Shown: positions 3,547 through 43,497, numbered from the stretch's first letter. The stretch is 64,000 nucleotides of DNA from Parcubacteria group bacterium GW2011_GWA2_47_21 (GCA_001000545.1 LCOC01000005.1:10013-74012), one strand, 5' to 3'. A program made the numbers and translations. Notes: generated by a model from the sequence alone, not told the origin.

Positions 3547-6500
3547 CTATTGGGCATCCGCGCTCAAACCTTTGTCCGCGTTTCGACCTTCTTCCGGAAG
3601 CCGGAGCAATTCCACATTGAGCGACAGCCCTTTCAAGTTGTTCAAAAGCACGCTGAAAGAAGCGGGCGCGTTGGAGTCCTTAATGCGTTCGCCTTTGACG
3701 ATGGCGTCAAACGCCGCCGAGCGCCCCAAGATATCGTCGGATTTAATGGTGAGCATTTCCCGCAAAGTGTACGCGGCGCCGTGGCCCAAGAGAGCCCAGA
3801 CTTCCATTTCCCCGAATCGCTGGCCGCCGCCTTGAGCCTTGCCGCCCAAGGGCTGTTGGGTAATAAGCGAATACGGACCGATGGAGCGCATGTGGATTTT
3901 GTCTTCCACCATATGATGAAGTTTCAAAATATACATATAACCGACGGCGATATTTTGGCTGAATGATTCGCCGGTCCGGCCGTCATAGAGTTTCATCTTG
4001 CCGCTCCGGTCAAAACCGGCCTTTACCAATTCGTCTTTCACTTCCTCGTCGCTCGCGCCGGTAAAGGGGGGCACAATGGCCTGGTAACCCTGGGTGTGGG
4101 CGGCCAGGCCCAAATGTAATTCCAGAATTTGCCCCAAATTCATGCGCGACGGTACTCCGAGCGGAGTCAAAATAATGTCCACCGGCGTGCCGTCGGGCAG
4201 GTAAGGCATATCGGCTTCGGGCAGCACGCGGGAAATGACGCCTTTGTTGCCGTGCCGGCCAGCCAATTTGTCGCCCACCGAGACATTCCGGAGTTCCGCC
4301 ACTTCAATGTGAATTCGCTTCAAAATTCCGCTATCCAACTTATCGCCCCGTTCGCGGGAGAAAACTTTCACGCCGATTATCCGGCCCCTCTTGCCGTTCT
4401 CCATCCGCTTGGAGGTGTCTTTGACATCACGGGCTTTCTCGCCGAAAAGCGAGCGGAGCAATCGTTCCTCCGGAGTGAGCTGGGTTTCGCCTTTGGGCGT
4501 AATTTTCCCTACCAGAATATCACCCGGCCTAACTTCCGCCCCAACCCGGACAATGCCGTCCTCGTCAAGATTTTTGAGTTTGACTTCGCCGACATTCGGA
4601 ATATCGTGGGTCGTCACTTCGGGACCAAGCTTCGTGTCTCTGACATTCACCACAAATTCTTCAATGTGAATGGAAGTAAATTTACTGTCCTTGACCAACC
4701 GCTCGGAAATGATAATGGCGTCTTCGTAATTGAAACCGCTCCAAGACATAAAAGCGACCAGCACATTGTGGCCCAAAGCCATTTCCCCACCGACGCTTGA
4801 AGAGGTGTCGGCCAAAACCGTTCCTTTCTTTACTTTATCGCCAGCTTTGACAATCGGCCTCTGGTGGAAGACGGTAAAGCCGTTAGTTCGGGAAAAATTG
4901 ACAAGCTTGTATTCCCTGTCCTTGCTTTTGGAATTCTTGACGATAATTTTCTTGGCGTCAGAATAAGAGACCGTCCCTTCCTCAAGCGCGTTGACGACTC
5001 GGCCGGTGTCTTTAGCCGCCTGTTTTTCTATGCCCGTCGCAACCAAAGGCGCTTCCGGCACGATAGACGGCGTGGCTTGCTTTTGCATGTTTGAACCCAT
5101 AAGCGCTCTGTTGGCGTCGTCATGATTTAAAAATGGAATCATGGAGGTGGCGATGGAAAACGCTTGGTTGGTGGCGACATCTATAAAATCAACGCTTTCC
5201 TTTTTCGCCAAACCCGGCTTGCCACCAAGCCGGACTTCCGCCACTTCTTCCAGAAGCTCGCCTTTTTCGTTGTAGAGGGTGGCGGCGTGAGCGATATTGT
5301 AGTTTTCTTCTTCGTAAGCGTTTAGGTAGACGATTTCTTTGGTAATCATTCCGTTCTTCACTTTGGCATAAGGCGTCTCAATCATGCCGAAATCGTTTAT
5401 CCTGGCGTAGGTGGCCAATCTAAGAATCAAGCCGATGTTCGGGCCTTCCGGAGTGTGGATCGGACAAACCCGTCCGTAATGCGACGGGTGAACGTCCCGG
5501 ACTTCAAAACCGGCCCGCTCCCTGGTCAAACCGCCGGGGCCCAAAGCCGAAAAAGTCCGAAGGTGCTCCAACTCGGCCAAGATATTTTCTTGGGCCATAA
5601 ATTGGGAAAGCTGGTTGGTGGTGAAAAATTCTTTGATGCGGGCTTGCAGGGGCTTCGGAGAAATAAACTGGACCGGTGTCGTAACATCGGATTCAATCGT
5701 AGACATCCGGTCTTGGATATTCCGCTTTATCTGGGTCATACCAACGCGGATTTTTTGCTGGAGCAGTTCTCCCACATAGCGGACCCGCCGGCTTCCCAAG
5801 TGGTCTATATCGTCCTCCATCGCGCCGGCCGTGGTGTTTAATTTTATGATGTTGCCGACGATGTGAATCAAGTCGGTCAAGGTGATTTTCCTCTGCTCCA
5901 TGTCTTTTTCAGAAAGCCCCAAACCGAAGCGTTTGTTGAATTTGAAACGGCCGACTTTGGAAATATCATAACGCTCGGAGCTGAACAACCCATTGATGAA
6001 TTCCTTGGCATTATCTATGGAGCGCATATCGCCGTCGCGGAGCCGTTTGTGAATTTCAAGGTAGGATTCGGCAACGGTCTTGGCGTGGTCTTTTTCAAAA
6101 GACGCGTCAAGGAACGCCGGCGCTTCTTTAATGTCCGCAAAATGCTTTCTTATGATTTCGTCATTCTCGGCGCCAAACACCCGCAAGAGAGAGGTGATGG
6201 AGAATTTTCTCTGCCGGTCAATCCTAACGTAAATAGCACCGTCCGGCTCGGCATCTATCTCAACCCAAACGCCTCTGGAAGGAATAATCTTCGCGCCGAA
6301 ATACTGTTTGCCTTTGAATTCCGTCTTGGTAAAAAAGACGCCGAAAGAACGGGCCAGTTGCGGGACAATCACCCGCTCCACTCCGGAAATAATGAAAGTG
6401 CCGTGAGAGGTCATCATCGGCAAATCGGCGAGAAAAATTTCCTGCTCTTTGCTCACGCCCAATGTCTTATTTTTCAAACGAACGGTTACTTTAAGCGAAG

Positions 6501-11060: not shown

Positions 11061-12551
11061 GTGAAAATCGTGCTTTATGTCGTTGTTTTTATCGGGGGCG
11101 CGGTCGTTATGGTTTTAGAGTTGGTGGCGACCCGTATTATCGCGCCCTATCTCGGCGCGTCATCAATCGTCTGGACGAGTTTAATCGGCGTCATTCTGGC
11201 GGGCCTAAGCGTCGGCTACTTTGTAGGCGGAAAAATCGCCGATAAGAAAGCGACTTACAAAGGACTCGCGCTTATTTTCATAATTGCCGGACTTTTGGTG
11301 ATTCTCATTCTCTACTTCAAGCCCATACTCGGCTTAATCGCAAAAATAGAAAACCTGCAAGCCGGAGCATTGCTCGCCTCTTTAATCCTCTTTACGCCGG
11401 CGACAATCGCTTTGGGCACCATTGCTCCTTACGCCGTCCGTCTCCGGATTGAGTCGCTCCAAAATTCCGGAAATATCGTAGGGAAACTCTACGCTCTTTC
11501 AACGGTCGGAAGCATTGTCGGCACCTTCCTCGGCGGGTTTTTCCTTATCTCGTATTTCGGGAGCACTAAAATTCTAGAATACTTAAGCGCCACTCTGATT
11601 TTATCCGGGGTCTTCGTATATGTGGCAGATACCAGAAAATCAACCGGCTTAATTGCCCTGCCTTTGCTCCCCATAATACTGACAGCAATCATTCCCCCTT
11701 ATGGCTTAATCCTGGAAAAAAACGCCGAACTTCTCACCGATGTGGACAGCGAATACAGCCGGCTTTGGGTCTACGACAGCAGAGATAAAAAAACCAATCG
11801 GCCCGCCCGCTACCTTACGACAAGCGTTGAACTCACCCAATCGGGCATGTATCTCGATAACCCCGAAGAACTCCTCTTGGATTATGCCAAACTGCTTGAC
11901 CTGGCGGAAATGTTCAACCCGAAACTTAACCGCGGGCTTTTAATCGGCGCCGGGGCGTATTCATACCCAAAATACTTTTTGAAAAAGTATCCGGAAGCCA
12001 CCCTGGACGCGGTAGAAATAGATGAAAAAATGACAATGTTAGCCAGACAATATTTCTTTCTGAAAGATAACCCGCGGCTTGCCATATACCACCAAGACGG
12101 GAGGACATTTTTAAGTCGAATTGATAATAAATACGACGCGATTTTCATTGATGCTTTCCTCTCGCCTCTTTCCATTCCCTATCACCTTACAACGGTTGAA
12201 ATTATAAAAATGGCAGAGAGCAAGCTCGCCACAGAGGGAGTGGTGATTGTAAATATCATCGGCGCGCTTCAAGGCCACCGAAGCGATTTTTTCACAGCGG
12301 AATACGGCACTTACAAAACAGTGTTTCCTAATGTATACGTTTTTCGCGCGCAACCGGAGCGAAAACCCGATGAATTGCAAAACATTATTCTCGTGGCCGC
12401 AAAATCAAATAACACGCTCGTTATTGACAATAAGCTTAGGAAAAGCGATTACTTAAAAAATTGGTGGCCAGAAAAAGTAACGACAAATTTGCCCATCTTA
12501 ACCGACGACTTCGCTCCGGTAGAAAAATATGTGACAAAATCAATGTTCTGA
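11061..12551 (+). CDS. Fused polytopic membrane domain + spermidine-synthase-like (polyamine aminopropyltransferase fold) protein
   Basis: N-terminal ~8 predicted TM helices (LVATRIIAPYLGASSIVWTSLIGVILAGLSVGYFVGGKIADK) followed by class I MTase-like/spermidine synthase core (GLLIGAGAYSYPKYF...AVEIDEKM...DAIFIDAF); apparent GTG start. Confidence 0.65.
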   Translation: MKIVLYVVVFIGGAVVMVLELVATRIIAPYLGASSIVWTSLIGVILAGLSVGYFVGGKIADKKATYKGLALIFIIAGLLVILILYFKPILGLIAKIENLQAGALLASLILFTPATIALGTIAPYAVRLRIESLQNSGNIVGKLYALSTVGSIVGTFLGGFFLISYFGSTKILEYLSATLILSGVFVYVADTRKSTGLIALPLLPIILTAIIPPYGLILEKNAELLTDVDSEYSRLWVYDSRDKKTNRPARYLTTSVELTQSGMYLDNPEELLLDYAKLLDLAEMFNPKLNRGLLIGAGAYSYPKYFLKKYPEATLDAVEIDEKMTMLARQYFFLKDNPRLAIYHQDGRTFLSRIDNKYDAIFIDAFLSPLSIPYHLTTVEIIKMAESKLATEGVVIVNIIGALQGHRSDFFTAEYGTYKTVFPNVYVFRAQPERKPDELQNIILVAAKSNNTLVIDNKLRKSDYLKNWWPEKVTTNLPILTDDFAPVEKYVTKSMF

Positions 12552-12620
12552 AAGACGGATACGAGAGATTTTTAATTCCCGAGTGATTTAACGGTTTCCC
12601 CCATCAAATTCATAATCCCG
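12462..12620 (+). repeat. Direct repeat copy A (~158 bp): intact 3' end of the membrane/spermidine-synthase-like gene plus downstream junction
   Basis: TGGTGGCCAGAAAAAGTAACGACAAATTTGCCCATCTTAACCGACGACTTCGCTCCGGTAGAAAAATATGTGACAAAATCAATGTTCTGAAAGACGGATACGAGAGATTTTTAATTCCCGAGTGATTTAACGGTTTCCCCCATCAAATTCATAATCCC; recurs at 13924-13992 and 14782-14939. Confidence 0.9.
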
Positions 12621-12782
12621 AAAGGCTTTGTTGAATAATTCATTTTATGGCTCTAAATAAGAGCATTTTGGGCAGTCAAAAAATGGGGCAAAATAGAGAT
12701 ACGGCTTAAAATAAGGATATTTTGGTTGAATTATTCAACAACGCCATCCCGAAAACCGAAAACATTATCTTGCCGTAAAAAA

Positions 12783-13835
12783 TTACAAAAAATAATTCGC
12801 CTGTGAAAAATCGTGTTGTTCCAAAAATAATTTTTTTGCCAGCGAGGCGTTTTGCAGTTCATAAAACAAAATCATGGCTTTTTTGTATTCCGTCTCGCCA
12901 GCGCTCCGCAAAGAAAGCGGACAGGTATTGGCCGCCAAAAGACAAGCATTCGCCAAGAGCCGCGCCGTCCTTTTATTGCCATCTTCAAACGGCTGAATAT
13001 AAGAAATGACGATAAGAGCAATCAGCGCTTTGTTCCAGGGATCGCCTGCCTCGTTTATTTTTTCAAGCCCAAGCTCCAACGCTTCTTTAATTTGGTATTT
13101 ATTGTCCAAAGGCCGATAATTCGTGCCGGTAATGCCAACCGGTTTGCCCCGTAAACCAAAATTCACATTCAAACCATCAACCAAAAACCGATGAATGTCC
13201 TCCGTATCGCGCAAAGAAACCGTCTCAAATTTTTGCTTATTGCCAAAAATATAATCAAGGGCTTTCTTATGATTAAGAATCATTACCGCCTCTTCCTTCG
13301 GATGCCCCGCGGCCTCTCTGTTTTCCTTAATCAAGGTCTCGGTGTCCAAAAGAGTGTAAGTGTTGCCCTCAATTTTTGAGGACTTCCATGAAAACTCTAT
13401 GGTAATTCTCTCAAATTCCTTTTTTAAAATATCGGGCGGTAAACCAGCGATTCTTTTTTTATAATCGCCGTCTTTCGTTTTTAACGCAGCCAATTCTTTT
13501 TGATTTATCAAACCGCCGAGTTTTTCCACTGCCGTTGTCTTAAACGAAATAGGCGCCGGCGCGCGTTGGTCCGGTTCTTGCGCCAGATAACTCTCAAAAT
13601 CCATCGGTTTCAGAAACGGATGCGGGGCAACCGCCCGGTAAGCCAAAGAGCGGCCTTTGCCAAACTTTTCCAAAACGCCAGCCGCCACCAAAACCGAAAA
13701 TTCTCTGGCGACGGTTTCTCGGGAAAATGGTTCATTTTGTTCGGCAAAAAAAGCCACCAAATCAGAATTTCTAACGGAAGCTCGGGTGGCGGCAAATTCA
13801 AGTATTTTTTGTTGTCTTTTAGTTAATTGTGTCAT
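12783..13835 (-). CDS. Fic/Doc family protein (AMPylator-type toxin-like) with N-terminal winged-helix region
   Basis: Fic motif HxFx(D/E)GNxR present as IQPFEDGNKRTARLLANA; 350 aa. Confidence 0.75.
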   Translation of the reverse strand: MTQLTKRQQKILEFAATRASVRNSDLVAFFAEQNEPFSRETVAREFSVLVAAGVLEKFGKGRSLAYRAVAPHPFLKPMDFESYLAQEPDQRAPAPISFKTTAVEKLGGLINQKELAALKTKDGDYKKRIAGLPPDILKKEFERITIEFSWKSSKIEGNTYTLLDTETLIKENREAAGHPKEEAVMILNHKKALDYIFGNKQKFETVSLRDTEDIHRFLVDGLNVNFGLRGKPVGITGTNYRPLDNKYQIKEALELGLEKINEAGDPWNKALIALIVISYIQPFEDGNKRTARLLANACLLAANTCPLSLRSAGETEYKKAMILFYELQNASLAKKLFLEQHDFSQANYFL

Positions 13836-13923
13836 AAATTAACAACTATTCGCGTCAAGATGGCACAATTATACTGCCGTGTCTGACATAGAAGCAAATT
13901 CCGCGCAGAAGAATTCCTGACGG

Positions 13924-13992
13924 AAAATTTGCCCATCTTAACCGACGACTTCGCTCCGGTAGAAAAATATGTGACAAAATCAATGTTCTGAA
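13924..13992 (+). repeat. Direct repeat copy B (68-bp core of the junction repeat)
   Basis: AAATTTGCCCATCTTAACCGACGACTTCGCTCCGGTAGAAAAATATGTGACAAAATCAATGTTCTGAA identical to the core of copy A. Confidence 0.9.
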
Positions 13993-14047
13993 GAACAGAT
14001 GCGGATAATAATGGGATATGTCCTTAAAATTTTTCGTATTTATACGG

Positions 14048-14389
14048 TTATTCTAAATATTCCTTAATACGAAGTGCCGCTGCCGGCACATTATTCTTCA
14101 GTGTGTACCAGATGGTCGGCAAGTCAATGCTGAAATAATCGTGCGCCACAACATCGCGAAGTCCTGCCATCTGTTTCCATGGAATATCAATAGATATTTT
14201 AATTGAATCAGGCACTTTCTTGGCAAGTTCTCCAACAACTTCCAGTTGCATAATAACGGCGCTCTGGCTTTTGCTATCCACAGAAAAATCTTCATACGAC
14301 ATGCCTTCGGTAAAAGCGCGAATTTTAGCAAAGGCGTCAAGCATCAGACGAAGATACGCCGTGTCATCCTTGTTTTTATCTGGTCCCAT
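14048..14389 (-). CDS. HepT-like (DUF86) toxin of HepT/MNT type II TA pair
   Basis: R-x4-H-x-Y motif as LRDVVAHDY; overlaps upstream MNT gene by 14 bp. Confidence 0.7.
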   Translation of the reverse strand: MGPDKNKDDTAYLRLMLDAFAKIRAFTEGMSYEDFSVDSKSQSAVIMQLEVVGELAKKVPDSIKISIDIPWKQMAGLRDVVAHDYFSIDLPTIWYTLKNNVPAAALRIKEYLE

Positions 14390-14675
14390 AAATAATTTTC
14401 AAATCACGATAAATATAATCGCGAAAATACGGCACGATGGCTTTGTCAGAAATCAAATCAACCGGTTTTTGCAATCGTTCTGATAATTCTTCTTTAAACC
14501 CGACAAAATCCCACACGGAAAACGGCCGGTCTCCCAGAGAAACAAGAATATCCACATCACTGTCAGGTCTCGCATCACCGCGAGCGTATGACCCGAAAAT
14601 TCCGGCATAGCGAACTTCATATTTCCCCAAAATTGGTCTTATCGTGTCACCAATGTTTTGTATTGTCCTAGTCAT
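14376..14675 (-). CDS. MNT-type minimal nucleotidyltransferase antitoxin
   Basis: GSxxRG...DxD signature IFGSYARGDARPDSDVDILV. Confidence 0.75.
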   Translation of the reverse strand: MTRTIQNIGDTIRPILGKYEVRYAGIFGSYARGDARPDSDVDILVSLGDRPFSVWDFVGFKEELSERLQKPVDLISDKAIVPYFRDYIYRDLKIIYGTR

Positions 14676-14781
14676 ACAAAGATAATATCACAAGGAATGC
14701 GTGTTTGACAAAAAAAATAATAGCCAAAATACATCACTTGCGCCTAGAGAGCATAGAGAAAGGTTAAACCGCCGCCTTTCC

Positions 14782-14939
14782 TGGTGGCCAGAAAAAGTAA
14801 CGACAAATTTGCCCATCTTAACCGACGACTTCGCTCCGGTAGAAAAATATGCGACAAAATCAATGTTCTGAAAGACGGATACGAGAGATTTTTAATTCCC
14901 GAGTGATTTAACGGTTTCTCCTATCAAGTTCATAATCCC
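14782..14939 (+). repeat. Direct repeat copy C (~158 bp, 4 mismatches vs copy A), abutting first pilin-like gene
   Basis: Same 158-bp sequence as 12462-12620 with GTG->GCG and three substitutions in the distal part; its minus strand encodes the C-terminal tail (IMNLIGETVKSLGN*) of ORF 14892-15083. Confidence 0.9.
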
Positions 14940-15083
14940 AAACGCCGAGAACATTATGAACATTCCGATGATACCGAAGATAATCGCTAATCCGCCCTCT
15001 TTCCTCTTCGCCGCGTCATCACCTTTGGCTACATAACGAAAGACCCCCCAAATAAATACCAGAAAAGCCAGTGACAGAAGCAA
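14892..15083 (-). CDS. VirB2/TrbC-like small membrane protein paralog, N-terminally truncated (possible gene fragment)
   Basis: Two hydrophobic helices around loop VFRYVAKGDDAAKRKEGG; lacks signal peptide and overlaps 3' end of next paralog by 65 nt. Confidence 0.35.
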   Translation of the reverse strand: MLLSLAFLVFIWGVFRYVAKGDDAAKRKEGGLAIIFGIIGMFIMFSAFGIMNLIGETVKSLGN

Positions 15084-15528
15084 AAGGATAATCGGATTTC
15101 AAAAGTGGAATATCGTCGCTCTGCATTGTGCTGGAGCTCCCTGGAGCATCGGCTCTCTGCAAACCAAAAGTATAAAATAAAAGTTGGACAAACCCCCACA
15201 CCCCGACTAAAACCAACAAACCTATCACCCCATACATCATAAATTTACTTCCCTCGCTGCGTTGTTCCTCATTATGACCAGCGAAAACATATCGCATAAC
15301 CCCCCATAGAAATACCAATAAGCCCGCCCCCACTAATAATGAGAAAAGAGGAGCAAGAACCCCCCACCATGTCTCGGAAAGTAACGCCTCAACATAATTG
15401 CCGGGAGGAGCGAAATCAACGCGACCGGCAAAAACAAATCTAGAAAGCACAAAACCGGCAACGGTGGCCGTTACAGCCGTCGTCACACACTTTCTGACAA
15501 AAAATCTATTGGGGTTACTTCGGCTCAT
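15019..15528 (-). CDS. VirB2/TrbC-like (T4SS pilin-like) small membrane protein paralog
   Basis: Signal-peptide-like N-terminus then helix-loop-helix core LVFLWGVMRYVFAGHNEEQRSEGSKFMMYGVIGLLVLVGVWGFVQLL. Confidence 0.5.
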   Translation of the reverse strand: MSRSNPNRFFVRKCVTTAVTATVAGFVLSRFVFAGRVDFAPPGNYVEALLSETWWGVLAPLFSLLVGAGLLVFLWGVMRYVFAGHNEEQRSEGSKFMMYGVIGLLVLVGVWGFVQLLFYTFGLQRADAPGSSSTMQSDDIPLLKSDYPFASVTGFSGIYLGGLSLCSQR

Positions 15529-15664
15529 TTAAATAGACAATTATAAACCGTAACAATATCCTGTAGCTTACATGAAAGAGTTTTGACGAACGAAAAGCAA
15601 TCTTTGTTCTGAAGACATCCTAAATTCCACCCTCAATAAATTTAAAAAAATTCACACCGCCTAT

Positions 15665-16240
15665 CTACGAACACCCGGGCGACTTACCAATCAGCGTGCA
15701 CTCTGCATCCGTAAGTGGCGCCAATCGCGGTCCCGGCAAGGCGCCTCCCAAACCAACGCCCAAAGTATAAGCAAGAATGTTTACTATACCCCACACCCCG
15801 ACCATCACGAATAGAGCGATAACCCCAAAAACCATAAAACTGGCGCCCGCCTTCCGTTTCTCGTCATTGCCGCCGGCGCTTATGTATTTTACGACGCCCC
15901 ATAAAAACACTACCAAACCGATGCTGATGGCCAGGGCTATAAACTGATTTACCCATGTCTTCAGTGTGGCTATCACATCCTCAAAGTAGGTAAAATCTGG
16001 AGTCCCCGCACTGACAACTAGCGGTAGAAAAACTGCACCGATCACTGCGGCGGTACAAATTACCAATGACATAACTTGATTCTGATATTTTTTACCAATT
16101 AACTTCATAAAAACGGGATTTAAATGTTGAAAATTAAAAACGCGCGACTTAAGAAAACTTAATCTAGTCAGCCGCAAGACGACCTTAAGCATAATAGCAC
16201 GCAAACCTATAGCATTGGCAAGTGCGCAGACCGTACTCAC
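15665..16240 (-). CDS. VirB2/TrbC-like small membrane protein paralog (true start probably internal Met, MKLIGKK...)
   Basis: Core LVVFLWGVVKYISAGGNDEKRKAGASFMVFGVIALFVMVGVWGIVNIL preceded by signal peptide MSLVICTAAVIGAVFLPLVVSAG. Confidence 0.5.
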   Translation of the reverse strand: MSTVCALANAIGLRAIMLKVVLRLTRLSFLKSRVFNFQHLNPVFMKLIGKKYQNQVMSLVICTAAVIGAVFLPLVVSAGTPDFTYFEDVIATLKTWVNQFIALAISIGLVVFLWGVVKYISAGGNDEKRKAGASFMVFGVIALFVMVGVWGIVNILAYTLGVGLGGALPGPRLAPLTDAECTLIGKSPGCS

Positions 16241-16335
16241 TACGGAACCCCGCCACCGAACTAACCGGCGGCGGGGTTGTAATTACGACAGAAACCGCCC
16301 AGCAAACAACACTGAAATGTCTGGAAAGAATCCTC

Positions 16336-16743
16336 CTATGGAACAGGAACGATTGGGACTCCTCCACCAGACCGTCCACCTGTAAAATCAGGATTAGGCA
16401 CACTACCGCCAAGACCAACATTTAAGGTGTAAGCAAGCAACCGGACAAGACCCCAAACACCTACTATCACAAACAAAGCAATAACCCCCCAAATCATTGT
16501 TCCGCGAGCCGCTTTCTTTTGCTCCTCGTCAGCGCCGGCAGTAATATACCGAATCACGCCCCACATAAAGACAACCAAAGCAACTCCTATAAGGAGAGGG
16601 ACAAGAGCTACCACCCAGTTAACTAGCGTTGACAGAGCACTATCAACATATCCACTTTGGACAGCGGCGGCCGCCGCAAACGACGGCAGAAGTAATACTG
16701 AGACAATCCCAACCAAACCAATTATTTTTGCTTTAAGAGACAT
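16336..16743 (-). CDS. VirB2/TrbC-like small membrane protein paralog
   Basis: Signal peptide MSLKAKIIGLVGIVSVLLLPSFAAA then core LVVFMWGVIRYITAGADEEQKKAARGTMIWGVIALFVIVGVWGLVRLL; Gly/Pro-rich C-tail. Confidence 0.55.
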   Translation of the reverse strand: MSLKAKIIGLVGIVSVLLLPSFAAAAAVQSGYVDSALSTLVNWVVALVPLLIGVALVVFMWGVIRYITAGADEEQKKAARGTMIWGVIALFVIVGVWGLVRLLAYTLNVGLGGSVPNPDFTGGRSGGGVPIVPVP

Positions 16744-17166
16744 ATAATAAATATATATTTATTATTCGCTTGTAAATTTTTATGTTTTCTTTAATTCTAA
16801 ATAAAGACCGAAGACCCATTAAAACAAAGAAAACTAACTGATTTTAGTGCTTGCGCATTAAAAACCTCGACCTTTAACACGCGGCACACCAAACATCATG
16901 CACGGGATAAGTGTACCCTTAAGCCCGAAACCTCGCAAGGTACCCCTGTGAATTACTTTTTCCTGTCTATGAGACATCGGCTAAAGATTTTAGCGTCTCA
17001 ATAATAAGATTCATTATGCCACAAACCCCCAAACATTATAAACATACCCATTATTTCGTAATTCAAAATCCGTAAATAATGGCTTGACTTTCCTATCCTC
17101 CTTTACATTGAGTTTTGTGTTAAATGCGTCCATATCGCAATATTTACTTTTTTAATACATGATTAA

Positions 17167-17538
17167 TTAACTGGGAATTTCCGGCACCTCCGGATAGCTC
17201 CGACCGGTTTCGCCCGTACTGATGCCGAGCGTGCCGGCAATCAAAGAGACCAATCCCCACACACCCGCCATTACGAATATAAATACCAATCCCCAGAGCA
17301 TAAACTTACCCGCTTCTTTCCGTTGTTCTTCATTGTCAGCGGCGCCAAGATATCTAACAATCTGCCAAATGAAAAAAATTAGAGCAAACCCAATTAGAAC
17401 GGCAACCAGCGGGTTAAGAACTTTGTATAATCCATCAAGAAATTTGGCGTAGTAGGAGAAATCTTGAGCCAATACAATAAGAGGTGCGTAGCCAGAAACC
17501 AGAATAAGCAGGAATTTCAGCTTATAACATTTTGGCAT
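17167..17538 (-). CDS. VirB2/TrbC-like small membrane protein paralog
   Basis: Core FFIWQIVRYLGAADNEEQRKEAGKFMLWGLVFIFVMAGVWGLVSLI after signal peptide. Confidence 0.5.
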   Translation of the reverse strand: MPKCYKLKFLLILVSGYAPLIVLAQDFSYYAKFLDGLYKVLNPLVAVLIGFALIFFIWQIVRYLGAADNEEQRKEAGKFMLWGLVFIFVMAGVWGLVSLIAGTLGISTGETGRSYPEVPEIPS

Positions 17539-17560
17539 AAATTATTAAAAACTTTATCGT

Positions 17561-17986
17561 CTAGAAAGTCGGCGCGGTCGGCTTCGTCGACGACGAAAGA
17601 TTGAGTGTTACACTCAACAGATTTATCAACCCCCAAATTGAAAACATCACAAAAATACCGATGATGCCGAAGATAATAAAGTTCCGCGCCTCCTCTACCT
17701 TCTTACTGTCCGCCCCGGCGGTAATATACTTGAGCACGCCCCAAAGAAAAACCAGAACGGCAAGACCAATAACAAAAGCCACAAGTTGATTTACCAAAAT
17801 CTTCAAATTAACGACGATACTACTTAAAGTCGCGGCAAACACTACGGCCGGTAAAGCTGTTGCAAATAATGTCGGCAAGGCAACACCGGCAAAAAGTTTT
17901 TGGAAGTTTGCGCGCCCTGTTAGAAACCATGATGGTTTGTAGCGTGTCTTTGCCTCTAATGGGGAAATTTTGGCGATGGGGTTCAT
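17561..17986 (-). CDS. VirB2/TrbC-like small membrane protein paralog
   Basis: Core LVFLWGVLKYITAGADSKKVEEARNFIIFGIIGIFVMFSIWGLINLL after signal peptide. Confidence 0.5.
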   Translation of the reverse strand: MNPIAKISPLEAKTRYKPSWFLTGRANFQKLFAGVALPTLFATALPAVVFAATLSSIVVNLKILVNQLVAFVIGLAVLVFLWGVLKYITAGADSKKVEEARNFIIFGIIGIFVMFSIWGLINLLSVTLNLSSSTKPTAPTF

Positions 17987-18007
17987 TACTTGTCTTTTTA
18001 TTTTGCA

Positions 18008-18433
18008 CTAACTTTGCTTTTTCAAAAAAGCATCCACCAGTTTAACATACTCAACATATTGGCCGAAACCGTTCCTAATGTGGGCAACCATCAATTTTTT
18101 ATTAACATCGCCGTATTGATGGACAATGGCGTTTCTCATTCCGACCGATGGCGCGATTTTTAACGCAAAGTCAATGGGCAACATTCCCGCCTCGGCAATG
18201 ATTGAAAAACTACTCTGATAATCGTCAGCGGTTTTCAGTCCACTTTCAGCTATCAAATGCATATTGATATCCACCGCCGCGTCAACCATACCCTGAAAGT
18301 GCCTTTCCAGCGCAGCGAGAACATCTTCGTCGCGAAGAAAATGTTCATCTCCTTTCTGGAACAATCTTTCAATTTTCTGATATCGCGACTGAATCTCATC
18401 CATCTTTCTTTTTATCACTTCCTTGTCAATCAT
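18008..18433 (-). CDS. HepT-like (DUF86) toxin, second HepT/MNT pair, embedded in pilin-like array
   Basis: R-x4-H-x-Y motif as MRNAIVHQY. Confidence 0.7.
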   Translation of the reverse strand: MIDKEVIKRKMDEIQSRYQKIERLFQKGDEHFLRDEDVLAALERHFQGMVDAAVDINMHLIAESGLKTADDYQSSFSIIAEAGMLPIDFALKIAPSVGMRNAIVHQYGDVNKKLMVAHIRNGFGQYVEYVKLVDAFLKKQS

Positions 18434-18449
18434 ATTTTCCTACTCAATT

Positions 18450-18857
18450 TTAATGACTCAAGATAAATTTCTGAATCGCCGTTTCCCTTATTTCAAAAAG
18501 TCGTTTCGCTTCGGCAAAAAGTTTCAAAGCGTAAATTTTGAATGCGGCATATAGAGTCGATTTTTTTTGATAGAACAAAACGGAGTTGATCGCCACGTTT
18601 TTCATCAGAAGCGGCGGCGCTTTTTTCAAATCAACTAAGTCAGTTTTTCCGATTTTCAGAATCTCAGAAAGTTCAAACTCCATTCGGACTTGTTCTTCAA
18701 AACTTTTGGGTTGAGCGGAGATAAAACCAAAATCGTAATCGCTTTTTTTGTGAGTTTTGCCGGAAACCTGCGAACCGAACAACACCAACAAGTCCAAGTC
18801 GTGTTTCTCAGCGAATCCCGACGCTTTTTCTTTTATTATCTCTAAATTTTTCACCAT
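18450..18857 (-). CDS. MNT-type nucleotidyltransferase antitoxin (second pair)
   Basis: LFGSQVSGKTHKKSDYDFG nucleotidyltransferase signature; directly upstream of HepT. Confidence 0.7.
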   Translation of the reverse strand: MVKNLEIIKEKASGFAEKHDLDLLVLFGSQVSGKTHKKSDYDFGFISAQPKSFEEQVRMEFELSEILKIGKTDLVDLKKAPPLLMKNVAINSVLFYQKKSTLYAAFKIYALKLFAEAKRLFEIRETAIQKFILSH

Positions 18858-19010
18858 CTTATAATATCACAAGATATCGATATTTACCAAAAACCGGTGA
18901 TAGCAAAACGGCGGCGAGGATGGCAGCGAAAAGTTTTTGGGATTTTGCGCGCCCTGTTAGGCAAAACGAAGGTTTAGCTTCGTTTTATCTTATGCATACC
19001 CCCCCTCAAT

Positions 19011-19439
19011 CTACGGGCAGGTCTCAAACACAAACTTGCTGCCGGTAACCTGGCCGACTGTTTCGTTTAAGACCGTAGCGATAAGCCACGACCCCAATAA
19101 TACCGCCGTGCCGATAACCGCGCCGACAAAGGCGGTGCGGGCATTTTTTAGCGCCGCGGTGTCCCCTCCCGCCGTTACAAACAGAAAACCGGAGTAAATG
19201 ATAAATACGGCGGCGACAATAATGCCAATTTTAAGGAGGATATTAATGAACCCTTTGAGAAAACAGTAGATTGATGTTGAACAAAGGGGGTTGGGGAATC
19301 CCGTGCCCTCTCCTATGCTCCCGCCTGCCGGCGGCGTGCAGGCCGCGAGGACAAGCGCCGGCGCAATCGCGGTTAATAAAAGAATCAAAACCAGCGCCGG
19401 TATTTTTATTTTTTTGAAAAATTTGTTGAAAAACGCCAT
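19011..19439 (-). CDS. Divergent VirB2/TrbC-like small membrane protein paralog
   Basis: Signal peptide then VFIIYSGFLFVTAGGDTAALKNARTAFVGAVIGTAVLLGSWLIATVL (helix-AGGD loop-helix). Confidence 0.45.
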   Translation of the reverse strand: MAFFNKFFKKIKIPALVLILLLTAIAPALVLAACTPPAGGSIGEGTGFPNPLCSTSIYCFLKGFINILLKIGIIVAAVFIIYSGFLFVTAGGDTAALKNARTAFVGAVIGTAVLLGSWLIATVLNETVGQVTGSKFVFETCP

Positions 19440-19480
19440 AAATTCAATTCGGCCGAACTAAATTGTAACATATCGCCGCC

Positions 19481-19969
19481 CTACGGAAGATTCGAGAGTT
19501 GATAACCTGCCTTGGCGAGAACGGAAAGAATCGTGTCCACGATTAGCCAAGCGGTCAAAACCAGCACGAATCCTATAGCCGCATTTTTGAAAATCTTGTG
19601 GGCTTGCTTGATTTGGCCGACATCCCCGCCGGCGGTCATATATTTAAAACCGGCGAAAGCGAAAAGAAGAACGGCAATTAAAACGCTCATGTAAATCATG
19701 AAGTCCAGGAGATTATTCGCCAGAGCGACGGCGCCGTTCCAGTTACATTCCTCCATTGTGTTGGCATACGCCGGCCCATCATATGGGGCTACTCTGGTTG
19801 GCGGACCGCCTCCGGCCGGGTTTTCAATTTTACCGTCTCCATTCAAATCGTACCCGCACGGCACAAGCGCCTCTCCGGGTTTCCAAGCGAAAACCGCCGT
19901 TGGAACAAAAGTAAGCAAGACCACTACTACTCCGCAAAAGACCAAAAAAATATTTAGAGGGCGAGCCAT
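19481..19969 (-). CDS. Divergent VirB2/TrbC-like small membrane protein paralog
   Basis: LFAFAGFKYMTAGGDVGQIKQAHKIFKNAAIGFVLVLTAWLIVDTIL after signal peptide and Gly/Pro-rich segment. Confidence 0.45.
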   Translation of the reverse strand: MARPLNIFLVFCGVVVVLLTFVPTAVFAWKPGEALVPCGYDLNGDGKIENPAGGGPPTRVAPYDGPAYANTMEECNWNGAVALANNLLDFMIYMSVLIAVLLFAFAGFKYMTAGGDVGQIKQAHKIFKNAAIGFVLVLTAWLIVDTILSVLAKAGYQLSNLP

Positions 19970-19973
19970 TAAG

Positions 19974-20249
19974 TTATTTTACTATTAACTGAAGTCCCAA
20001 ACCATTAGTAACTTTTTTCAAAAAGGAAAGAGTCGGGTTAATCCTGCCCGACTCAAAACGAGCAAGCGCCGATTGCGTTACGCCAATCCTGCCCGCCAGC
20101 TGTTTTTGGGTTACCTTTTTATTTATTCGGGCCCGAATCATTGATTCGATAATGCGAAATTCCAAATCAATATCGGCTAATGCTTTTCGCACCCCTGCCC
20201 GTTTCAAAGAGGCCCGCTTAAATTGTTCAAATGTCTTCATTTTAATCAC
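19974..20249 (-). CDS. XRE-family HTH antitoxin (HigA-like)
   Basis: HTH block VTQKQLAGRIGVTQSALARFESGRINPTLSFLKKVTNGLG; immediately downstream of RelE/HigB-like gene. Confidence 0.65.
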   Translation of the reverse strand: MIKMKTFEQFKRASLKRAGVRKALADIDLEFRIIESMIRARINKKVTQKQLAGRIGVTQSALARFESGRINPTLSFLKKVTNGLGLQLIVK

Positions 20250-20275
20250 AAGGTCAATATAACATATACGCTATA

Positions 20276-20614
20276 TCAACGCAACCGCTTTTTCAACTGC
20301 AACACATAGTCAATCTCTTTTTTAGGAATCTTATTCGTCTTTTTAATAAGAGCGTGCAAAACCATGACTTCATCATTACGGTAAACAAAGAAAATTCTTA
20401 TATGCTTCACCCCAATCACTCGTAGCTCAAATATCCCTTGAGCCAGATATTTTGTATGCGGATATGCGGCAGTATTTCCGTATTTTTCAAGCAAACTTAA
20501 TGACCTGTTTATTCTAGCAACTGAACTATCGTCTAATGATAAAAGAAAGTCATAGGTCTTTGAAAAAAGAAATTTAATTTCCCTGCGCGCATTTAAGTAA
20601 TTCTTATCGTCCAA
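20276..20614 (-). CDS. RelE/ParE-superfamily toxin, HigB/Gp49-like
   Basis: Resembles phage Gp49/HigB family (GIFELRVIGVKHIRIFFVYRNDEVMVLHALIKKTNKIPKKEI); toxin-first, HTH-second order typical of higBA. Confidence 0.55.
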   Translation of the reverse strand: MDDKNYLNARREIKFLFSKTYDFLLSLDDSSVARINRSLSLLEKYGNTAAYPHTKYLAQGIFELRVIGVKHIRIFFVYRNDEVMVLHALIKKTNKIPKKEIDYVLQLKKRLR

Positions 20615-21890
20615 TCAGCGCGCTAAGTTCCGTGTTGGCTTGGCCGACCGCCTCGCTCACGCTTAAGCGGCCGGTAACCACCGCTTCAACCATCCGCTGG
20701 AAAATGGCGGACGTGGCGGATGGCGACGGGTCAGGCCAGCCCCTCGCCCAAAGCGCCGATTGGTCAAAAATGGCCCGCGCCGGATTGGTCTGGTCGGTGA
20801 AAAGCAAATCGCGCCTCGCCGACGGCAGGCCGGTCTTCGCGGACCACAGAAGTCCCGCGTTTTTATCAGTCAGCAAATAAATCCGGCTGACGGCGGCGGA
20901 GATGTTTCGGGAGGTTTTAAGAACCGCAACGGCGCGCATTTTACCGAAAGTGATTTTGTTCTTGGAATCCTTAAGCTGGGGAAGGCGGGAGACATCAAAA
21001 TTCAAATTGGGATTTTTCTCCCGAATCTCCTTAAATTCCGAAGCGAAACCGATGTAAATCGGCAAGGCGCCGGCCAGAAAATAATCTTTGGCCGGCGGAA
21101 AACTTTTATTCCACGAATAAACGGTCTTAAGCGGATTGGCAAAATCGGTGTAAAAACTCAAGACGGAAACAGCCGGATAAAGTTGCCCGACTGAATCCGC
21201 CAAAACCGCGTTAAAACCCTCGGGTGTCTTACCGATAATCGGCGTCCCCGCTTGAAGCAGGAGGGCCGAAAGAATCTCTTTGGCGTGGTTCACATTGCCG
21301 TATTCGCCGAAAGCCAAAGCGGGACTTACGACTTCGCCTTTTTCCGTTCGTTTGGCCAAACGGGAAACGACATAAAACATCTCCTCCCAAAATTCCGGCG
21401 GTCTGGGCAAACCGGCGGCCGAGAAAGAATCGCGGTTCCAATAAAGCACCAGCGGGTCAACGGAGAGGGGCAGGGCGGCGACGCCTTGCTCGGTTAGAAA
21501 CATCCCCCCTTCCTCAAGGAAAGTGTCTTTGAAGTCGCGAATCGGGTAGGAGTCGTAGGGAATGACCATCAACCGACTGGCAACGGCGGTAAAAAAGGAC
21601 TCCGGAAAAATGACAATGTCCGGCGCCACGCCATCGGCGATGGCGCTGATTAAATCCCGCTCAAAAGCCGCTTCGCTTTTGGCGACATAGACATTGGCGG
21701 TTTCGGTCTCCTGCGAGAACGACTCAACAAACGCGGAGTAGCTCGCGTCCGTGGGACCCCAGATTGTCAAATTAACGGCGCCCGGACCGCTTTTCCCTCC
21801 TTTATAAAGGGCAAAAGAAGCAACGCCCGCCAAAATGGCTACAAAAAACAGGCCGAGCAAAACCAGTTGGAATTTCGTCAAATTTTTCAT
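20604..21890 (-). CDS. Extracellular solute-binding protein (ABC-type SBP family 1-like), orphan
   Basis: N-terminal signal/anchor, LTIWGP and ALPLSVDPLVLYWNRD blocks typical of sugar-type SBPs; no permease/ATPase adjacent. Confidence 0.45.
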   Translation of the reverse strand: MKNLTKFQLVLLGLFFVAILAGVASFALYKGGKSGPGAVNLTIWGPTDASYSAFVESFSQETETANVYVAKSEAAFERDLISAIADGVAPDIVIFPESFFTAVASRLMVIPYDSYPIRDFKDTFLEEGGMFLTEQGVAALPLSVDPLVLYWNRDSFSAAGLPRPPEFWEEMFYVVSRLAKRTEKGEVVSPALAFGEYGNVNHAKEILSALLLQAGTPIIGKTPEGFNAVLADSVGQLYPAVSVLSFYTDFANPLKTVYSWNKSFPPAKDYFLAGALPIYIGFASEFKEIREKNPNLNFDVSRLPQLKDSKNKITFGKMRAVAVLKTSRNISAAVSRIYLLTDKNAGLLWSAKTGLPSARRDLLFTDQTNPARAIFDQSALWARGWPDPSPSATSAIFQRMVEAVVTGRLSVSEAVGQANTELSALIGR

Positions 21891-39643: not shown

Positions 39644-42637
39644 TTAGCCTTCATTATGTCTGTATAAATCTCCAAGTTTCAAAACGCTCCGATTCTCCCA
39701 CCAGCTTATATCCTTTTTCCCAACTTCCAGATTTTCTAGAATGAATAAATAACGCCATTCCTCTTTTGCCGGATCTGCCTCGGTTAGCATCGAGACATAT
39801 TTCTCGCCCCGCTCTTTTTTCGCCTTGTCTCGCTCGTCCATTCGTCCCTTTACTTCAATAATATAATTTACTACTCTATCGCCTTCATTTGCGCGTGCGA
39901 TAAAATCTGGAAAGTAATTTACATAAAACCCTTGCCAAAGATACTCAAAGTTATATCCCACGCCCTGCTGATGATTATAAATCCAGCCACTCACGTCCTC
40001 ACACGCATCTAATAATTGTGCGGCGCGCAACTCGTCATTATTAGCCATGCATTGCTTATCAAAACCGGCTCGCTCGGGATTCTCAAGGGCATTTTCAAAA
40101 ATCACCTGGTATGGCTCAATAACCCTGCTTTCTAAAATATCAAATTTGTCCGTCGCTGGTTTCTCATTTGAGCGCAAGCCGTTGATAAATTTGACGAGTT
40201 CCTGCTTCACCGCCGCCATCACATCGTCATTGAATATATTTTTCTTCACGATCTTGTCTGTCTTTTCATCCACCGAATCCAACCGCAAGGACGCACCGGC
40301 AGGAAGATCAAATACCCGCTTTTCCAAAAATCGCTTCACCACATCGAGTACGCGCAATTTATCGGAATGAGACAAACGCAATTCATTTAAAATCGGCCGG
40401 ACATAGCCAGAAATAAGTAACCGATCCAGCCCGTAATAATTTGCTGATTGTTCAAACTCAAATTCAAGCCCCTTTTCAATATCTTTCTCAAACTGTGTTT
40501 TGATCTTTAGTTTATCGGCAAATTCAATCCATTCAAGTCGCTTTGCCAACTCCGGCAAATCTGCCTCGCGGAAATTATCATGCCAAGTTTTTACATGCTC
40601 AATCAGCCCTAAAAATTTAATCATTCTCACATTACGAGCCTTCCGCACATCCGCATCAGAGAGCGGATTTACAACTGTGTATACTGGCGGTTCTTTCTCT
40701 CCTGCGTCCACTTCATCAACAATGTCGTCTATCTCGTCAATAATCGCTTGAAATGAGGGATGCTGGATAACATAGAGATTTTCAGGTTTGGAATATACTG
40801 CCCCCTCATCATCCATTTCCGGTTGATGCATTTTGCGAAGCCCTCGGCCCAATGTCTGCTCCGCTAGGGTCCGTGAATCACACGGCCGAAGTGGCACAAT
40901 GGTTTTCACATTCCGCACATCCCAGCCCTCTTTCAGCATCAAAACCGCGACAATCACGTTAAATGGATTCTCCACTACTTCGCCCTTCAATTGTGGATCC
41001 TCAATATATTCCTTATCTATCAAATGCACGAGCTTACGCACTTTGTCCCACTCCTTGTCGTTTTTAAGTTCCTTTTCGCCGATGTGTATTTGCACAACAG
41101 TTGTTTTGTCATCTTTTACAAACAGTGTTTGCTTGGCTTCGTCATCATAAAATCCTTTCACCGGCAGATTGTCTTGTGATAAGTCTTTGCCCTCATCGTC
41201 AATCTCCCGATACACTAAATAATTATATATCTGATTGGCTTCTTTTCTATCGTTACAGATAATAAAAAGAATTTGTTTGCGCTTATCGCCTTCTTGGTCA
41301 AAAACTTTTTGATTTTCCTGCCAGCGTTTGATACCTGTACGGAGCAGATTTTCGTACTTCTCCCAAGCGCATAGCTTTTCGTTATTGATAATACCGCGTG
41401 CCTCATCGCCCTCGTACACTTTCACCTTTTCCAGTTTTGGGAGTTTTATTATGCCGTCCCGTTTCGCATCGCCGAGCGAATACAAATCAACTGTGTGTTT
41501 GAATAAATCCATCCAACGGTAACGAATCTCCTCATTATCGTTCTTTTTCGTTTTATGAGACCCCTTTTCTTCAAAAAGCGTGGCCGATAAATCAATCTGT
41601 AAGCCAACTTCGCAAAGCTTATCTATATTTCTTATAGAGCGAATCCAACCCAATTCTTCGGCCGCCTGCTTTTCTTTCACGCCAATTTCCTTCAGGTTCT
41701 TTGTTTTCTTTTCATACTCCTTGTGCTTTTCTTCGTCGTGAACATGATGTGCCTCGTCGTTGATGACGAGAACATTCGATGAATTCTTAAAACTATCAAC
41801 CAATGCTCGCTTTTGGTTCTCTAACTTTTTGGGCATTGCCGTTTCAAAAATGCCAAGTTCCTTCGATAATCCCACGCTTTCTTCTTCACCTTCGTTTCCC
41901 GATTCCCTATAGAGCTTGTGGATGTTCGTTACTATAAGCGCACCTTCATCCGGCGCAAGCTCGCTTGGCACGGTTTCCGGCGAATACACTTTGAGATTCC
42001 AATATCGCTCAAGTTCTTTTGGAACTACCGGATCACCGTGGAAAATATCCGGCCTTTCATCTGACGGCGAAAAGTCCTCCAAAAGACGGTCAAGCACAAA
42101 CAAGTTCGGTGCAATCAAAATACTATGCTTGCCAATGTTTAAATGTTTTTCACCTTCAATCACTGCGTTTAAGTAACTCCATGCAATTACCAAGCCCATG
42201 ATTTTAGTCTTGCCGGAACCTGTTGCAAGTTGCGCGCCAAGCTTGGTCCAATCGTCGCGTTGGGGCACAATTTCAAAATCGATCACTTTGGAGATGTCCT
42301 CACGCCGACGAACCCCACAAACTTCGTAAAGATAAATAAAAGTTTCAAGTGCACGCCTCTGATGCGGCCAGTATTTGAAGCGATAACTTTTCCCGTCCCT
42401 TCCTTTTAACTCATGCGGAAATGGACGAAACCAATGTCTCAAAAGTAAATCCGTTGTTTCTGAAATATTCTTTTCAAACGGCATAACTGGCTTGTATCTT
42501 GGTTGCTCTTTCGGATAGGGCAGTTTAGCGCTTTGCAAAGCAAACCTTCGCCAAGCATCTACACGCTCACGGAGTTTTTGGATGACGATTTTCTGCGCTG
42601 GCAGAGTTTTCTCAGTTTTAGATGGTTTTGTAGGCAT
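39644..42637 (-). CDS. res: Type III restriction-modification system restriction subunit (Res), SF2 helicase + nuclease
   Basis: 997 aa; Walker A LATGSGKTKIM, DEAH box VINDEAHHV, helicase motifs; last gene of C-mod-...-res operon. Confidence 0.8.
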   Translation of the reverse strand: MPTKPSKTEKTLPAQKIVIQKLRERVDAWRRFALQSAKLPYPKEQPRYKPVMPFEKNISETTDLLLRHWFRPFPHELKGRDGKSYRFKYWPHQRRALETFIYLYEVCGVRRREDISKVIDFEIVPQRDDWTKLGAQLATGSGKTKIMGLVIAWSYLNAVIEGEKHLNIGKHSILIAPNLFVLDRLLEDFSPSDERPDIFHGDPVVPKELERYWNLKVYSPETVPSELAPDEGALIVTNIHKLYRESGNEGEEESVGLSKELGIFETAMPKKLENQKRALVDSFKNSSNVLVINDEAHHVHDEEKHKEYEKKTKNLKEIGVKEKQAAEELGWIRSIRNIDKLCEVGLQIDLSATLFEEKGSHKTKKNDNEEIRYRWMDLFKHTVDLYSLGDAKRDGIIKLPKLEKVKVYEGDEARGIINNEKLCAWEKYENLLRTGIKRWQENQKVFDQEGDKRKQILFIICNDRKEANQIYNYLVYREIDDEGKDLSQDNLPVKGFYDDEAKQTLFVKDDKTTVVQIHIGEKELKNDKEWDKVRKLVHLIDKEYIEDPQLKGEVVENPFNVIVAVLMLKEGWDVRNVKTIVPLRPCDSRTLAEQTLGRGLRKMHQPEMDDEGAVYSKPENLYVIQHPSFQAIIDEIDDIVDEVDAGEKEPPVYTVVNPLSDADVRKARNVRMIKFLGLIEHVKTWHDNFREADLPELAKRLEWIEFADKLKIKTQFEKDIEKGLEFEFEQSANYYGLDRLLISGYVRPILNELRLSHSDKLRVLDVVKRFLEKRVFDLPAGASLRLDSVDEKTDKIVKKNIFNDDVMAAVKQELVKFINGLRSNEKPATDKFDILESRVIEPYQVIFENALENPERAGFDKQCMANNDELRAAQLLDACEDVSGWIYNHQQGVGYNFEYLWQGFYVNYFPDFIARANEGDRVVNYIIEVKGRMDERDKAKKERGEKYVSMLTEADPAKEEWRYLFILENLEVGKKDISWWENRSVLKLGDLYRHNEG

Positions 42638-43485: not shown

Positions 43486-43497
43486 ATGGGTAGGTAA

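Follow-up and report, generated by a model that had tools for sequence, protein, structure and literature searches.

Fic and HepT/MNT cassettes between three direct copies of a convergent gene junction in a Parcubacteria genome: a pattern suggestive of insertion with long target duplication

Introduction

How does a compact gene cassette without a mobility gene come to stand between direct copies of the ends of its host's own genes? This question is raised by a locus in a 64,000-nucleotide stretch of the genome of Parcubacteria group bacterium GW2011_GWA2_47_21 (GCA_001000545.1, LCOC01000005.1:10013-74012; the whole stretch is hereafter the window, and positions are counted from its first letter). 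Here a gene for a Fic protein and a HepT/MNT toxin-antitoxin pair are bracketed by three copies of the junction between a spermidine-synthase-like (SpeE-like) gene and a convergent pilin gene. The original prediction, made from the DNA alone, explained this arrangement by serial integration of cassettes into a defined att core and, as an alternative, by an undescribed mechanism or hot spot for the capture of small cassettes. The results presented here lead us to a different explanation of the repeats. They are probably, though by no means certainly, not att sites but the traces left where two independent insertions with long target duplication hit overlapping targets in the SpeE/pilin junction. 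The phenomenon itself belongs to a kind that is known and mechanistically unexplained, insertion with long target duplication (ILTD).

Results

The SpeE-like gene (11061..12551, plus strand) encodes a fused membrane/spermidine-synthase-like protein of 496 aa (PF01564 Spermine_synth, E 2.5e-7) whose homologues are named 'fused MFS/spermidine synthase' by their sources. Convergent to it is the first T4SS_pilin-family gene of an array (14892..15083, minus strand, PF18895). The left part of the repeat is the last 90 nt of the SpeE-like gene, which in copy A (left segment 12462..12623) constitute the intact, functional gene end (12462-12551). They are followed by a 20-nt spacer, which we call allele 1 (12552-12571), and from 12572 on by a minus-strand remnant of a pilin 3' end. 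Copy C (14782..14957) begins with a non-functional remnant of the SpeE tail; after the spacer it contains the 3' end that genuinely belongs to the first pilin gene. The 161-nt segment 12462-12622 of copy A returns in copy C at 14782-14942 with 4 mismatches, and the central 68 nt of copy A (12485-12552) return without any change at 13925-13992, the core of copy B (13920..14005). Thus the three direct copies lie where they had been predicted, the number of mismatches between A and C was given correctly, and both coding tails that had been quoted for the two strands of the repeat are present. It also holds that the repeats bracket two separately acquired cassettes and that the outer copies keep both host genes intact. 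When up to 3 mismatches were allowed, the 68-mer had 3 matches in the window (0.00 expected from shuffled sequences), and so it is not a high-copy sequence there. The repeat encodes the conserved C-terminus of the SpeE-like protein together with the pilin tail. It has no match in Rfam, and DNA folds of both strands of copies A and B revealed no secondary structure beyond that of shuffles, with z values from +0.47 to +1.91 in three of the four folds and -0.15 for the minus strand of copy B.

Copy A had been described as intact, which is true of its SpeE tail but not of its pilin part, since the latter is split by a 122-bp insertion (12624..12745) resembling a transposable element of the miniature inverted-repeat type (MITE). 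This insertion has 19-nt terminal inverted repeats, GGC[T/G]TTGTTGAATAATTCA, which match at 18/19 positions, a 9-bp target duplication ATCCCGAAA at 12615-12623 and 12746-12754, no coding capacity, and an empty site in two contigs of the population described below (L008, L030). It also folds far better than its shuffles (z -6.1). Neither the rest of the window nor the loci that we fetched contained a second copy of it. In L008 copy A is uninterrupted, and the presence of the MITE is therefore polymorphic in the population. Alignment of the MITE-free copy A to copy C places the continuation of A, remnant codons of the pilin tail (..IMFSVF..), at 12755..12768. With the MITE removed, the two copies align over 176 nt (12462-12623 plus 12755-12768 against 14782-14957) with 9 mismatches, and their homology extends 22 codons into the pilin tail.

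Copy B had been taken for the 68-bp core only. These 68 nt are indeed exact with respect to copy A, but in comparison with a second spacer allele copy B measures about 81 nt, i.e. it reaches 13 nt further to the right, to ~14005, by the extension GAACAGATGCGGA, which is allele 2 and occurs in copy C of contig L005. The direct repeats are 68 nt long and exact for the Fic unit (A/B), 79-91 nt for the HepT-MNT unit (B/C), or ~104 nt with allele 2, and 176 nt for the two units taken together (A/C), and their edges are unequal both on the left (12462 against 12485) and on the right (13992/14005 against 14957). Because the right extension of copy B matches the allele-2 spacer, its left edge would be the edge of the duplication on the Fic side and its right edge that on the HepT-MNT side. 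Judged by these edges, copy B looks like the overlap of two different target duplications and not like a minimal 'att core'.

The gene identities proposed for the locus (Fic, HepT/MNT, SpeE-like and pilin) are upheld by Pfam. The core of the Fic cassette (12777..13898, minus strand) comprises a -35/-10-like promoter region, an ORF for a winged helix-turn-helix (wHTH) Fic protein of 350 aa (12783-13835; PF02661, E 1.4e-11) and ~8 nt past its stop codon. It is the only stretch common to the Fic cassettes of other lineages, with ~82% nucleotide identity by blastn (L031, L117, L119). HepT (14048-14389) and MNT (14376-14675) form the toxin-antitoxin pair 14048..14675 on the minus strand (PF01934, E 4.9e-24; PF18765, PF01909), within a cassette that extends from ~14006 to 14781. 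Each cassette is a compact promoter-plus-gene unit, and the host gene-end sequence copied directly on its two sides measures ~104 nt in the case of HepT-MNT and ~68-176 nt in that of Fic. The inserts measure 1.4 kb (Fic only) and 0.9 kb (HepT and MNT only), their neighbours being the SpeE-like and pilin genes. Both have their own promoter-like -10, their G+C content is slightly lower than that of the host genes (0.38-0.43 and 0.45-0.50, respectively), and no mobility gene was found by Pfam in or beside either of them. Annotators should be warned that short 'ORFs' of this region, such as 14701-14871, are remnants of gene ends. With regard to the Fic protein itself, its motif QPFEDGNKR(T)xR has Gln at the position of the canonical catalytic His of Fic/Doc proteins, invariant in 35/35 aligned homologues. 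The NKR of this motif is Doc-like, and a motif resembling the SxxxEG of inhibitory helices (SSKIEG) is also conserved. The label 'toxin' is for this protein an assumption.

The same locus was examined in population contigs found by exact-protein look-ups (ENA ANAN16 scaffolds, assemblies of PRJNA268031 and JGI metagenomes), which place the window in a Parcubacteria-type population of Candidate Phyla Radiation (CPR) bacteria from the Rifle aquifer. The layout recurs in at least 10 independent groundwater assemblies from Rifle. All six internal junctions of the order A-Fic-B-HepT/MNT-C are present in 8 independent contigs from different samples and assemblers, and the structure is therefore not an artefact of assembly. 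A form without the MITE was found in two contigs (L008, L030) and a form without Fic in one contig of 25 kb (L001). The latter equals the window minus 12553-13992, i.e. exactly one repeat unit and Fic are gone, and it represents either what homologous recombination between the 68-nt repeats would be expected to produce or a locus that Fic had not yet reached. With one copy in place of A-Fic-B, it is an empty-site-like form for the Fic unit; JGI metagenome contigs yielded no such site for HepT-MNT or for both units together. Copies A and C have exchanged single-base alleles among contigs L001, L002, L005 and L008, an indication of ongoing gene conversion or exchange. A 35-mer from the core recovered one JGI contig, belonging to the same locus, and had no match in viral contigs.

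Two short contigs that came into question as a circular Fic element (L016, 1297 bp; L030, 1438 bp) are linear pieces of the chromosomal arrangement and were rejected. A Fic-only contig of 1564 bp from a Moraniibacteriota metagenome-assembled genome (L066) has identical 36-nt ends. It may represent a Fic cassette in circular or tandem form, or a contig that simply broke at flanking repeats.

We fetched 80 loci with Fic homologues from GTDB representative genomes, among which the best match to the Fic protein of the window is 63% identical in amino acids, and compared the 1.5-kb flanks of each side. A direct repeat of at least 50 bits was present at 15/78 Fic loci, while in the shifted controls 6/109 intervals had one (Fisher p = 0.0036). 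Where the repeats are tight, a duplicate of the beginning of the downstream housekeeping gene, identified by Pfam, stands upstream of Fic. The duplicated start is that of a glycosyltransferase gene in L050 and L043 (58-82 nt), of uvrA in L103 (78 nt), of dnaX in L080 (70 nt, 98.6% identity) and of fpg in L089 (44 nt, from the stop codon of the upstream gene). In L089 the inserted Fic ORF reuses this stop codon, which is the exact start of the duplicated segment. Across cassettes the repeats are 35-176 nt long. Alignments of the cassette ends show that the termini are not conserved, and only the stretch between the promoter region and a point ~8 nt beyond the stop codon is shared. Such unrelated repeats of variable length, with unconserved termini, cannot be explained by site-specific insertion at a single att core. 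Palindromes similar to repetitive extragenic palindromic (REP) sequences (L099), terminator-type elements (L075) and paralogous gene ends (L038) were rejected as target duplications and are not counted. The REP-like repeat of L099 is a perfectly palindromic 28-nt sequence, GTAGAGACGCATTGCAATGCGTCTCTAC, present three times around the Fic locus (1897-1927, 4601-4630 and 4939-4969).

The origin of the two copies of a repeat can be approached through their codons. In 8 repeat pairs we compared functional and remnant copies codon by codon and found 24 differing codons to be synonymous and 14 non-synonymous. Examples of the former are AGT/TCA for Ser and CTT/TTA for Leu in L050, while the pilin tail of the window has 4 synonymous and 2 conservative differences. 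Random change would be expected to give ~22% synonymous differences (p = 6e-8), and duplication in situ, with one copy constrained and the other decaying, ~36% (p = 6e-4). This bias indicates that both copies diverged mostly as coding sequence, in different lineages. A synonymous-biased divergence would be the signature of one donor and one recipient copy, and it points to repeat copies that probably derive from different lineages and to exchange between these lineages.

The closest SpeE-like relatives are 52-53% identical in amino acids, which is too distant for the repeat to be retained, and no junction duplication was found in them. Different cargo, for which the original prediction proposed to search, does occur downstream of the orthologous SpeE-like gene, namely HicBA in L022 and a LAGLIDADG-type gene with unknowns in L026. 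Together with L001 these contigs are in accordance with a hot spot of recurrent capture, so that this part of the original alternative stands; to call the mechanism undescribed, on the other hand, goes too far, since the pattern matches that published for ILTD. In another Rifle lineage (L031/L032) PemK and MNT/HepT are situated between duplicated pilin 5' ends. Contig L031 also contains a Fic gene, whose protein is 84% identical to that of the window, and a HicBA pair, bracketed by 3 copies of a 31-nt sequence. One site in three related groundwater contigs, located upstream of a 505-544-aa gene that is followed by an LTD/PKD gene, carries Fic only (L117), Fic and HicBA (L031) or HicBA only (L022), and on comparison of these contigs it appears as a clear alternative-cargo hot spot.

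Several other observations concern these relatives. The order of SpeE-like gene, accessory region, T4SS_pilin array, solute-binding protein, methyltransferase and gyrA is kept in distant relatives (window 11061-21890; L026; L022), and the accessory content between SpeE and the pilins is different in every lineage examined. In L079 (4975-8310) an intergenic repeat of ~45 nt separates Fic, a second type of Fic, DUF3800 and transglutaminase-like genes. The intergenic repeat of ~31 nt that separates Fic and HicBA in L031 (4178-5940) is, like that of L079, not obviously a gene end.

Duplicated gene ends are also found around another cassette of the window. The PF18895 T4SS_pilin array runs on the minus strand from 14892 to 19969, with a second HepT-MNT pair and a Gp49/HTH pair interspersed. 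The second HepT (18008-18433) and MNT (18450-18857) cassette (18008..18857, minus strand, assigned by Pfam) lies within this array. On one side of it is the genuine 5' coding end of the pilin gene 17561-17986 (direct repeat 17889..17938, 50 nt), and upstream of MNT, as seen by repeat comparison, a remnant duplicate of this pilin 5' end (18926..18975) with 82% identity. The cassette is ~74% identical in nucleotides to that of L032, which is likewise situated between pilin 5' ends. A third HepT-like/MNT pair (57217-57840 with 56937-57416) and a Gp49(HigB-like)/HTH pair (19974-20614) have no convincing flanking duplication, and the footprint is not carried by every toxin-antitoxin cassette of this genome.

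It was also predicted that there is no integrase in the window. Among 50 ORFs across the window searched with Pfam there is indeed no intact recombinase and no match of the Phage_integrase type. A serine-recombinase N-terminal fragment (MPNYFLYARKSTD..., PF00239, E 3e-6) is, however, present at ~46064-46280 on the plus strand, where ~70 aa can be followed before the sequence is degraded. It adjoins a tRNA-Ser gene (46548-46637, minus strand) and type III restriction-modification (R-M) genes (39644-45800); genes for a ResIII helicase, a NYN protein and an N6_N4 methylase lie beside the tRNA gene, near the fragment. The region around position 46 kb resembles what is left, after decay, of an integrated element with an R-M system.

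In comparison with nearly all other population contigs the window is without 112 bp at ~15100, so that the first pilin gene has lost its start and the one after it its end, the ORFs around this position being 63/169 aa in the window and 83/152 aa in the other contigs. It is also without 103 bp at ~8452, in the region of a Band_7 gene. These two gaps may be strain-specific deletions or assembly collapses.

Discussion

The best reading of these results is a recombination-driven insertion with long, variable target duplication, followed by gain and loss mediated by the repeats. The cassettes would be brought on DNA of a sister lineage that already has them beside the same genes. The anchored side, the SpeE 3' end, would be joined by homologous recombination and the other side by an illegitimate or short-homology join. 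If this join falls within the homologous stretch, the junction that comes in would be added to the one already resident. Possible routes are homology-facilitated illegitimate recombination (HFIR) or an ends-in (Campbell) crossover of an excised circle. In the simplest history of the window HepT-MNT would have arrived first, with a ~104-nt duplication in an allele-2 background. The Fic unit would have come next, from another lineage, with its allele-1 spacer and pilin tail, and a crossover within the 68-81 nt common to both units, which are now copy B, would have placed them in tandem. The insertion of the MITE into copy A would be a later step. The repeats would now be substrates for RecA-type deletion, reacquisition and gene conversion.

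Could the three copies nevertheless be sites of integration? A tyrosine or serine recombinase whose gene lies elsewhere in the genome, or on a helper element, might insert circular cassettes that have no integrase of their own at an att core within the SpeE tail, by accretion of the kind described for integrative elements. An exact 68-nt core that is present three times at a gene 3' end, with the gene end regenerated as by many integrative elements, is what such a process would leave, and the Fic-less form is a precise loss of one unit. Moreover, 64 kb of the genome have been seen, with a degraded serine-recombinase fragment at ~46.1 kb. We nevertheless regard this explanation as quite unlikely. 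The window has no intact recombinase, the edges of the repeat differ with the cassette (68-81, 104 and 176 nt), and the same cassette families are flanked elsewhere by unrelated host sequence of variable length. The repeat is plain coding sequence without inverted-repeat or hairpin architecture, and its synonymous-biased divergence is not expected of segments of attP/attB identity. The original proposal of serial integration into a defined att core is on these grounds not supported. Even less can be said for an array resembling an integron or a cluster of attC sites lacking integron-integrases (CALIN), with the repeats as attC sites. Toxin-antitoxin cassettes in a single orientation with similar repeats between them do recall sedentary chromosomal integron arrays. 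This explanation is effectively refuted by the fold test, as the repeats are coding tails without the structure of imperfect palindromes, and it is further at odds with the absence of intI from the window, with the promoter-like -10 of the cassettes themselves and with the different repeats used by other cassettes. We give it practically no credence, and the earlier statement that the layout is not integron-like, with no attC-type imperfect palindromes and no intI, was correct.

A different possibility is that the duplications arise de novo, from a dedicated insertion machinery which makes staggered cuts of 35-180 nt at gene termini that are subsequently filled in. The pattern is recurrent over many genomes and types of cargo, its boundaries are tight to the ORF and its targets are gene ends. 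The duplication in L089 starts exactly at the upstream stop codon that the Fic ORF reuses, and the mechanism of long target duplication is acknowledged in the literature to be unexplained. On the other side are the highly variable length of the duplications, the unconserved cassette ends and the lack of any candidate enzyme linked to them. The synonymous bias, furthermore, speaks for separate lineage histories and not for duplication in situ followed by neutral decay (p = 6e-4). We regard such a machinery as unlikely. As for an assembler having concatenated strain variants that share the junction, the sequence does come from a metagenome, and there are several assemblies with breaks at the MITE (12746) or at the repeats (L009, L015, L016). 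With the six internal junctions recovered in 8 independent contigs, and with repeats shorter than typical reads, this is hardly believable.

Insertion with long target duplication, which we prefer, has to be weighed against several points that speak against it. The Fic-less contig L001 could in principle be a mis-assembly by collapse of the repeat; typical reads, however, are longer than the 68-nt repeat, and the sample of L001 has no contig with Fic listed. Apart from this Fic-less form, the search for the empty site that had been suggested yielded no fully empty site when JGI metagenome contigs were scanned with an exact pattern (SpeE left flank, a gap of 125-150 nt, pilin right flank), and for this reason the duplication around HepT-MNT is inferred and not demonstrated. 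Fic and copy B meet in AAATTT, a hexamer common to the SpeE tail and to the upstream flank of related Fic cassettes. The alignment at this place is ambiguous, and the microhomology, being short, is only a hint of a short-homology join. The intergenic repeats of L079 (~45 nt) and L031 (31 nt) may be short target duplications or a different type of boundary or process. A trans-acting recombinase elsewhere is possible, since 64 kb of the genome were seen. The natural competence of this organism is assumed from CPR bacteria in general. Finally, the model is better suited to explain how cassettes pass from one relative to another than how the first of them entered each new target.

The same footprint is found around Fic, HepT-MNT, PemK and possibly HicBA, none of which is known to cut DNA. 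In the case of R-M units, a role for double-strand breakage by the cargo itself was suggested (PMC2853133). The non-cutting cargo weakens this idea of cargo-driven DNA cleavage and argues for a process that is independent of cargo and based on recombination. It is rather speculative, and in our opinion improbable, that insertion with long target duplication is a general, cargo-independent route by which compact toxin and defence cassettes reach gene termini in competent bacteria, including CPR, through an unrecognised pathway such as ends-in recombination of permuted or circular DNA or a staggered-nicking host factor; the wHTH-Fic protein might even promote its own insertion. The host belongs to a phylum with tiny genomes and few classical mobile elements. 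The Rifle population, with its Fic+/- and MITE+/- forms and shuffled alleles, constitutes a natural system in which such a process might be seen at work.

Among known systems, integron and CALIN arrays resemble the locus in having compact toxin-antitoxin cassettes in one orientation with repeats between them. They differ from it in their attC structure and IntI; here, moreover, each cassette has a promoter of its own, and the repeats consist of coding sequence of the host. Integrative elements and cis-mobilizable elements (CIMEs) can accumulate in tandem at a gene 3' end, for example the integrative and conjugative elements ICESt1/ICESt3 at fda. Such accretion shares with the present locus several att-like sequences in direct repetition at a gene's 3' end, integrase-less modules and a regenerated gene end. 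The locus is unlike it in that the window has no integrase, no fixed core is shared by other cassettes, the length of the repeat is particular to each cassette and a module consists of 1-2 genes. The 'minimal mobile elements' of Neisseria are alternative cargo between the same conserved genes, exchanged by transformation and homologous recombination. The alternative cargo at one site in L117, L031 and L022 is similar to them, but minimal mobile elements are not defined by flanking direct target duplications, which are present here. In HFIR, known from natural transformation of Acinetobacter, Streptococcus pneumoniae and Pseudomonas stutzeri, a homologous anchor on one side is combined with a join at microhomology of 3-10 nt, and foreign DNA is thereby inserted. 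There is no enzyme encoded by the element and the junction is variable, as in our case, and HFIR would explain why one copy is donor-like and the other recipient-like. Unlike here, it is usually described with deletion of recipient DNA and not with duplication.

The likeness to ILTD lies in a small addiction-type unit without transposase or integrase, in long and variable direct repeats that are the host target, in a repeat that may overlap the 3' end of a host gene, and in presence/absence polymorphism between strains. ILTD was described for R-M units (Nobusato et al. 2000, Gene 259:99; Furuta, Abe & Kobayashi 2010, NAR, PMC2853133). These are without mobility genes and have direct repeats of variable length, from 46 to >400 bp, some of which overlap a gene 3' end; they occur mostly in naturally competent species, and their mechanism is unexplained (PMC2853133). 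Furuta et al. 2010 recognised such insertions by repeats >30 bp, an empty site, the lack of mobility genes, an insert <20 kb and a low-copy repeat. All of these features are found for the Fic unit, with an empty-site-like variant, while HepT-MNT lacks the empty site. A review gives ILTD for R-M systems only (PMC3874152), and in our literature search we came across no case that involved CPR bacteria or cassettes of the toxin-antitoxin or Fic type. The locus is unlike the ILTD of R-M units in its cargo (Fic and HepT-MNT, with PemK and HicBA in relatives), in its CPR/Patescibacteria host, in a clean empty site for the Fic unit only, in the stacking of two units on overlapping targets, which results in three copies, and in a repeat that spans both convergent gene ends. 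From this comparison we can conclude that what is new here is the cargo, the host phylum, the tandem stacking on overlapping targets and the evidence from synonymous bias for donor and recipient copies.

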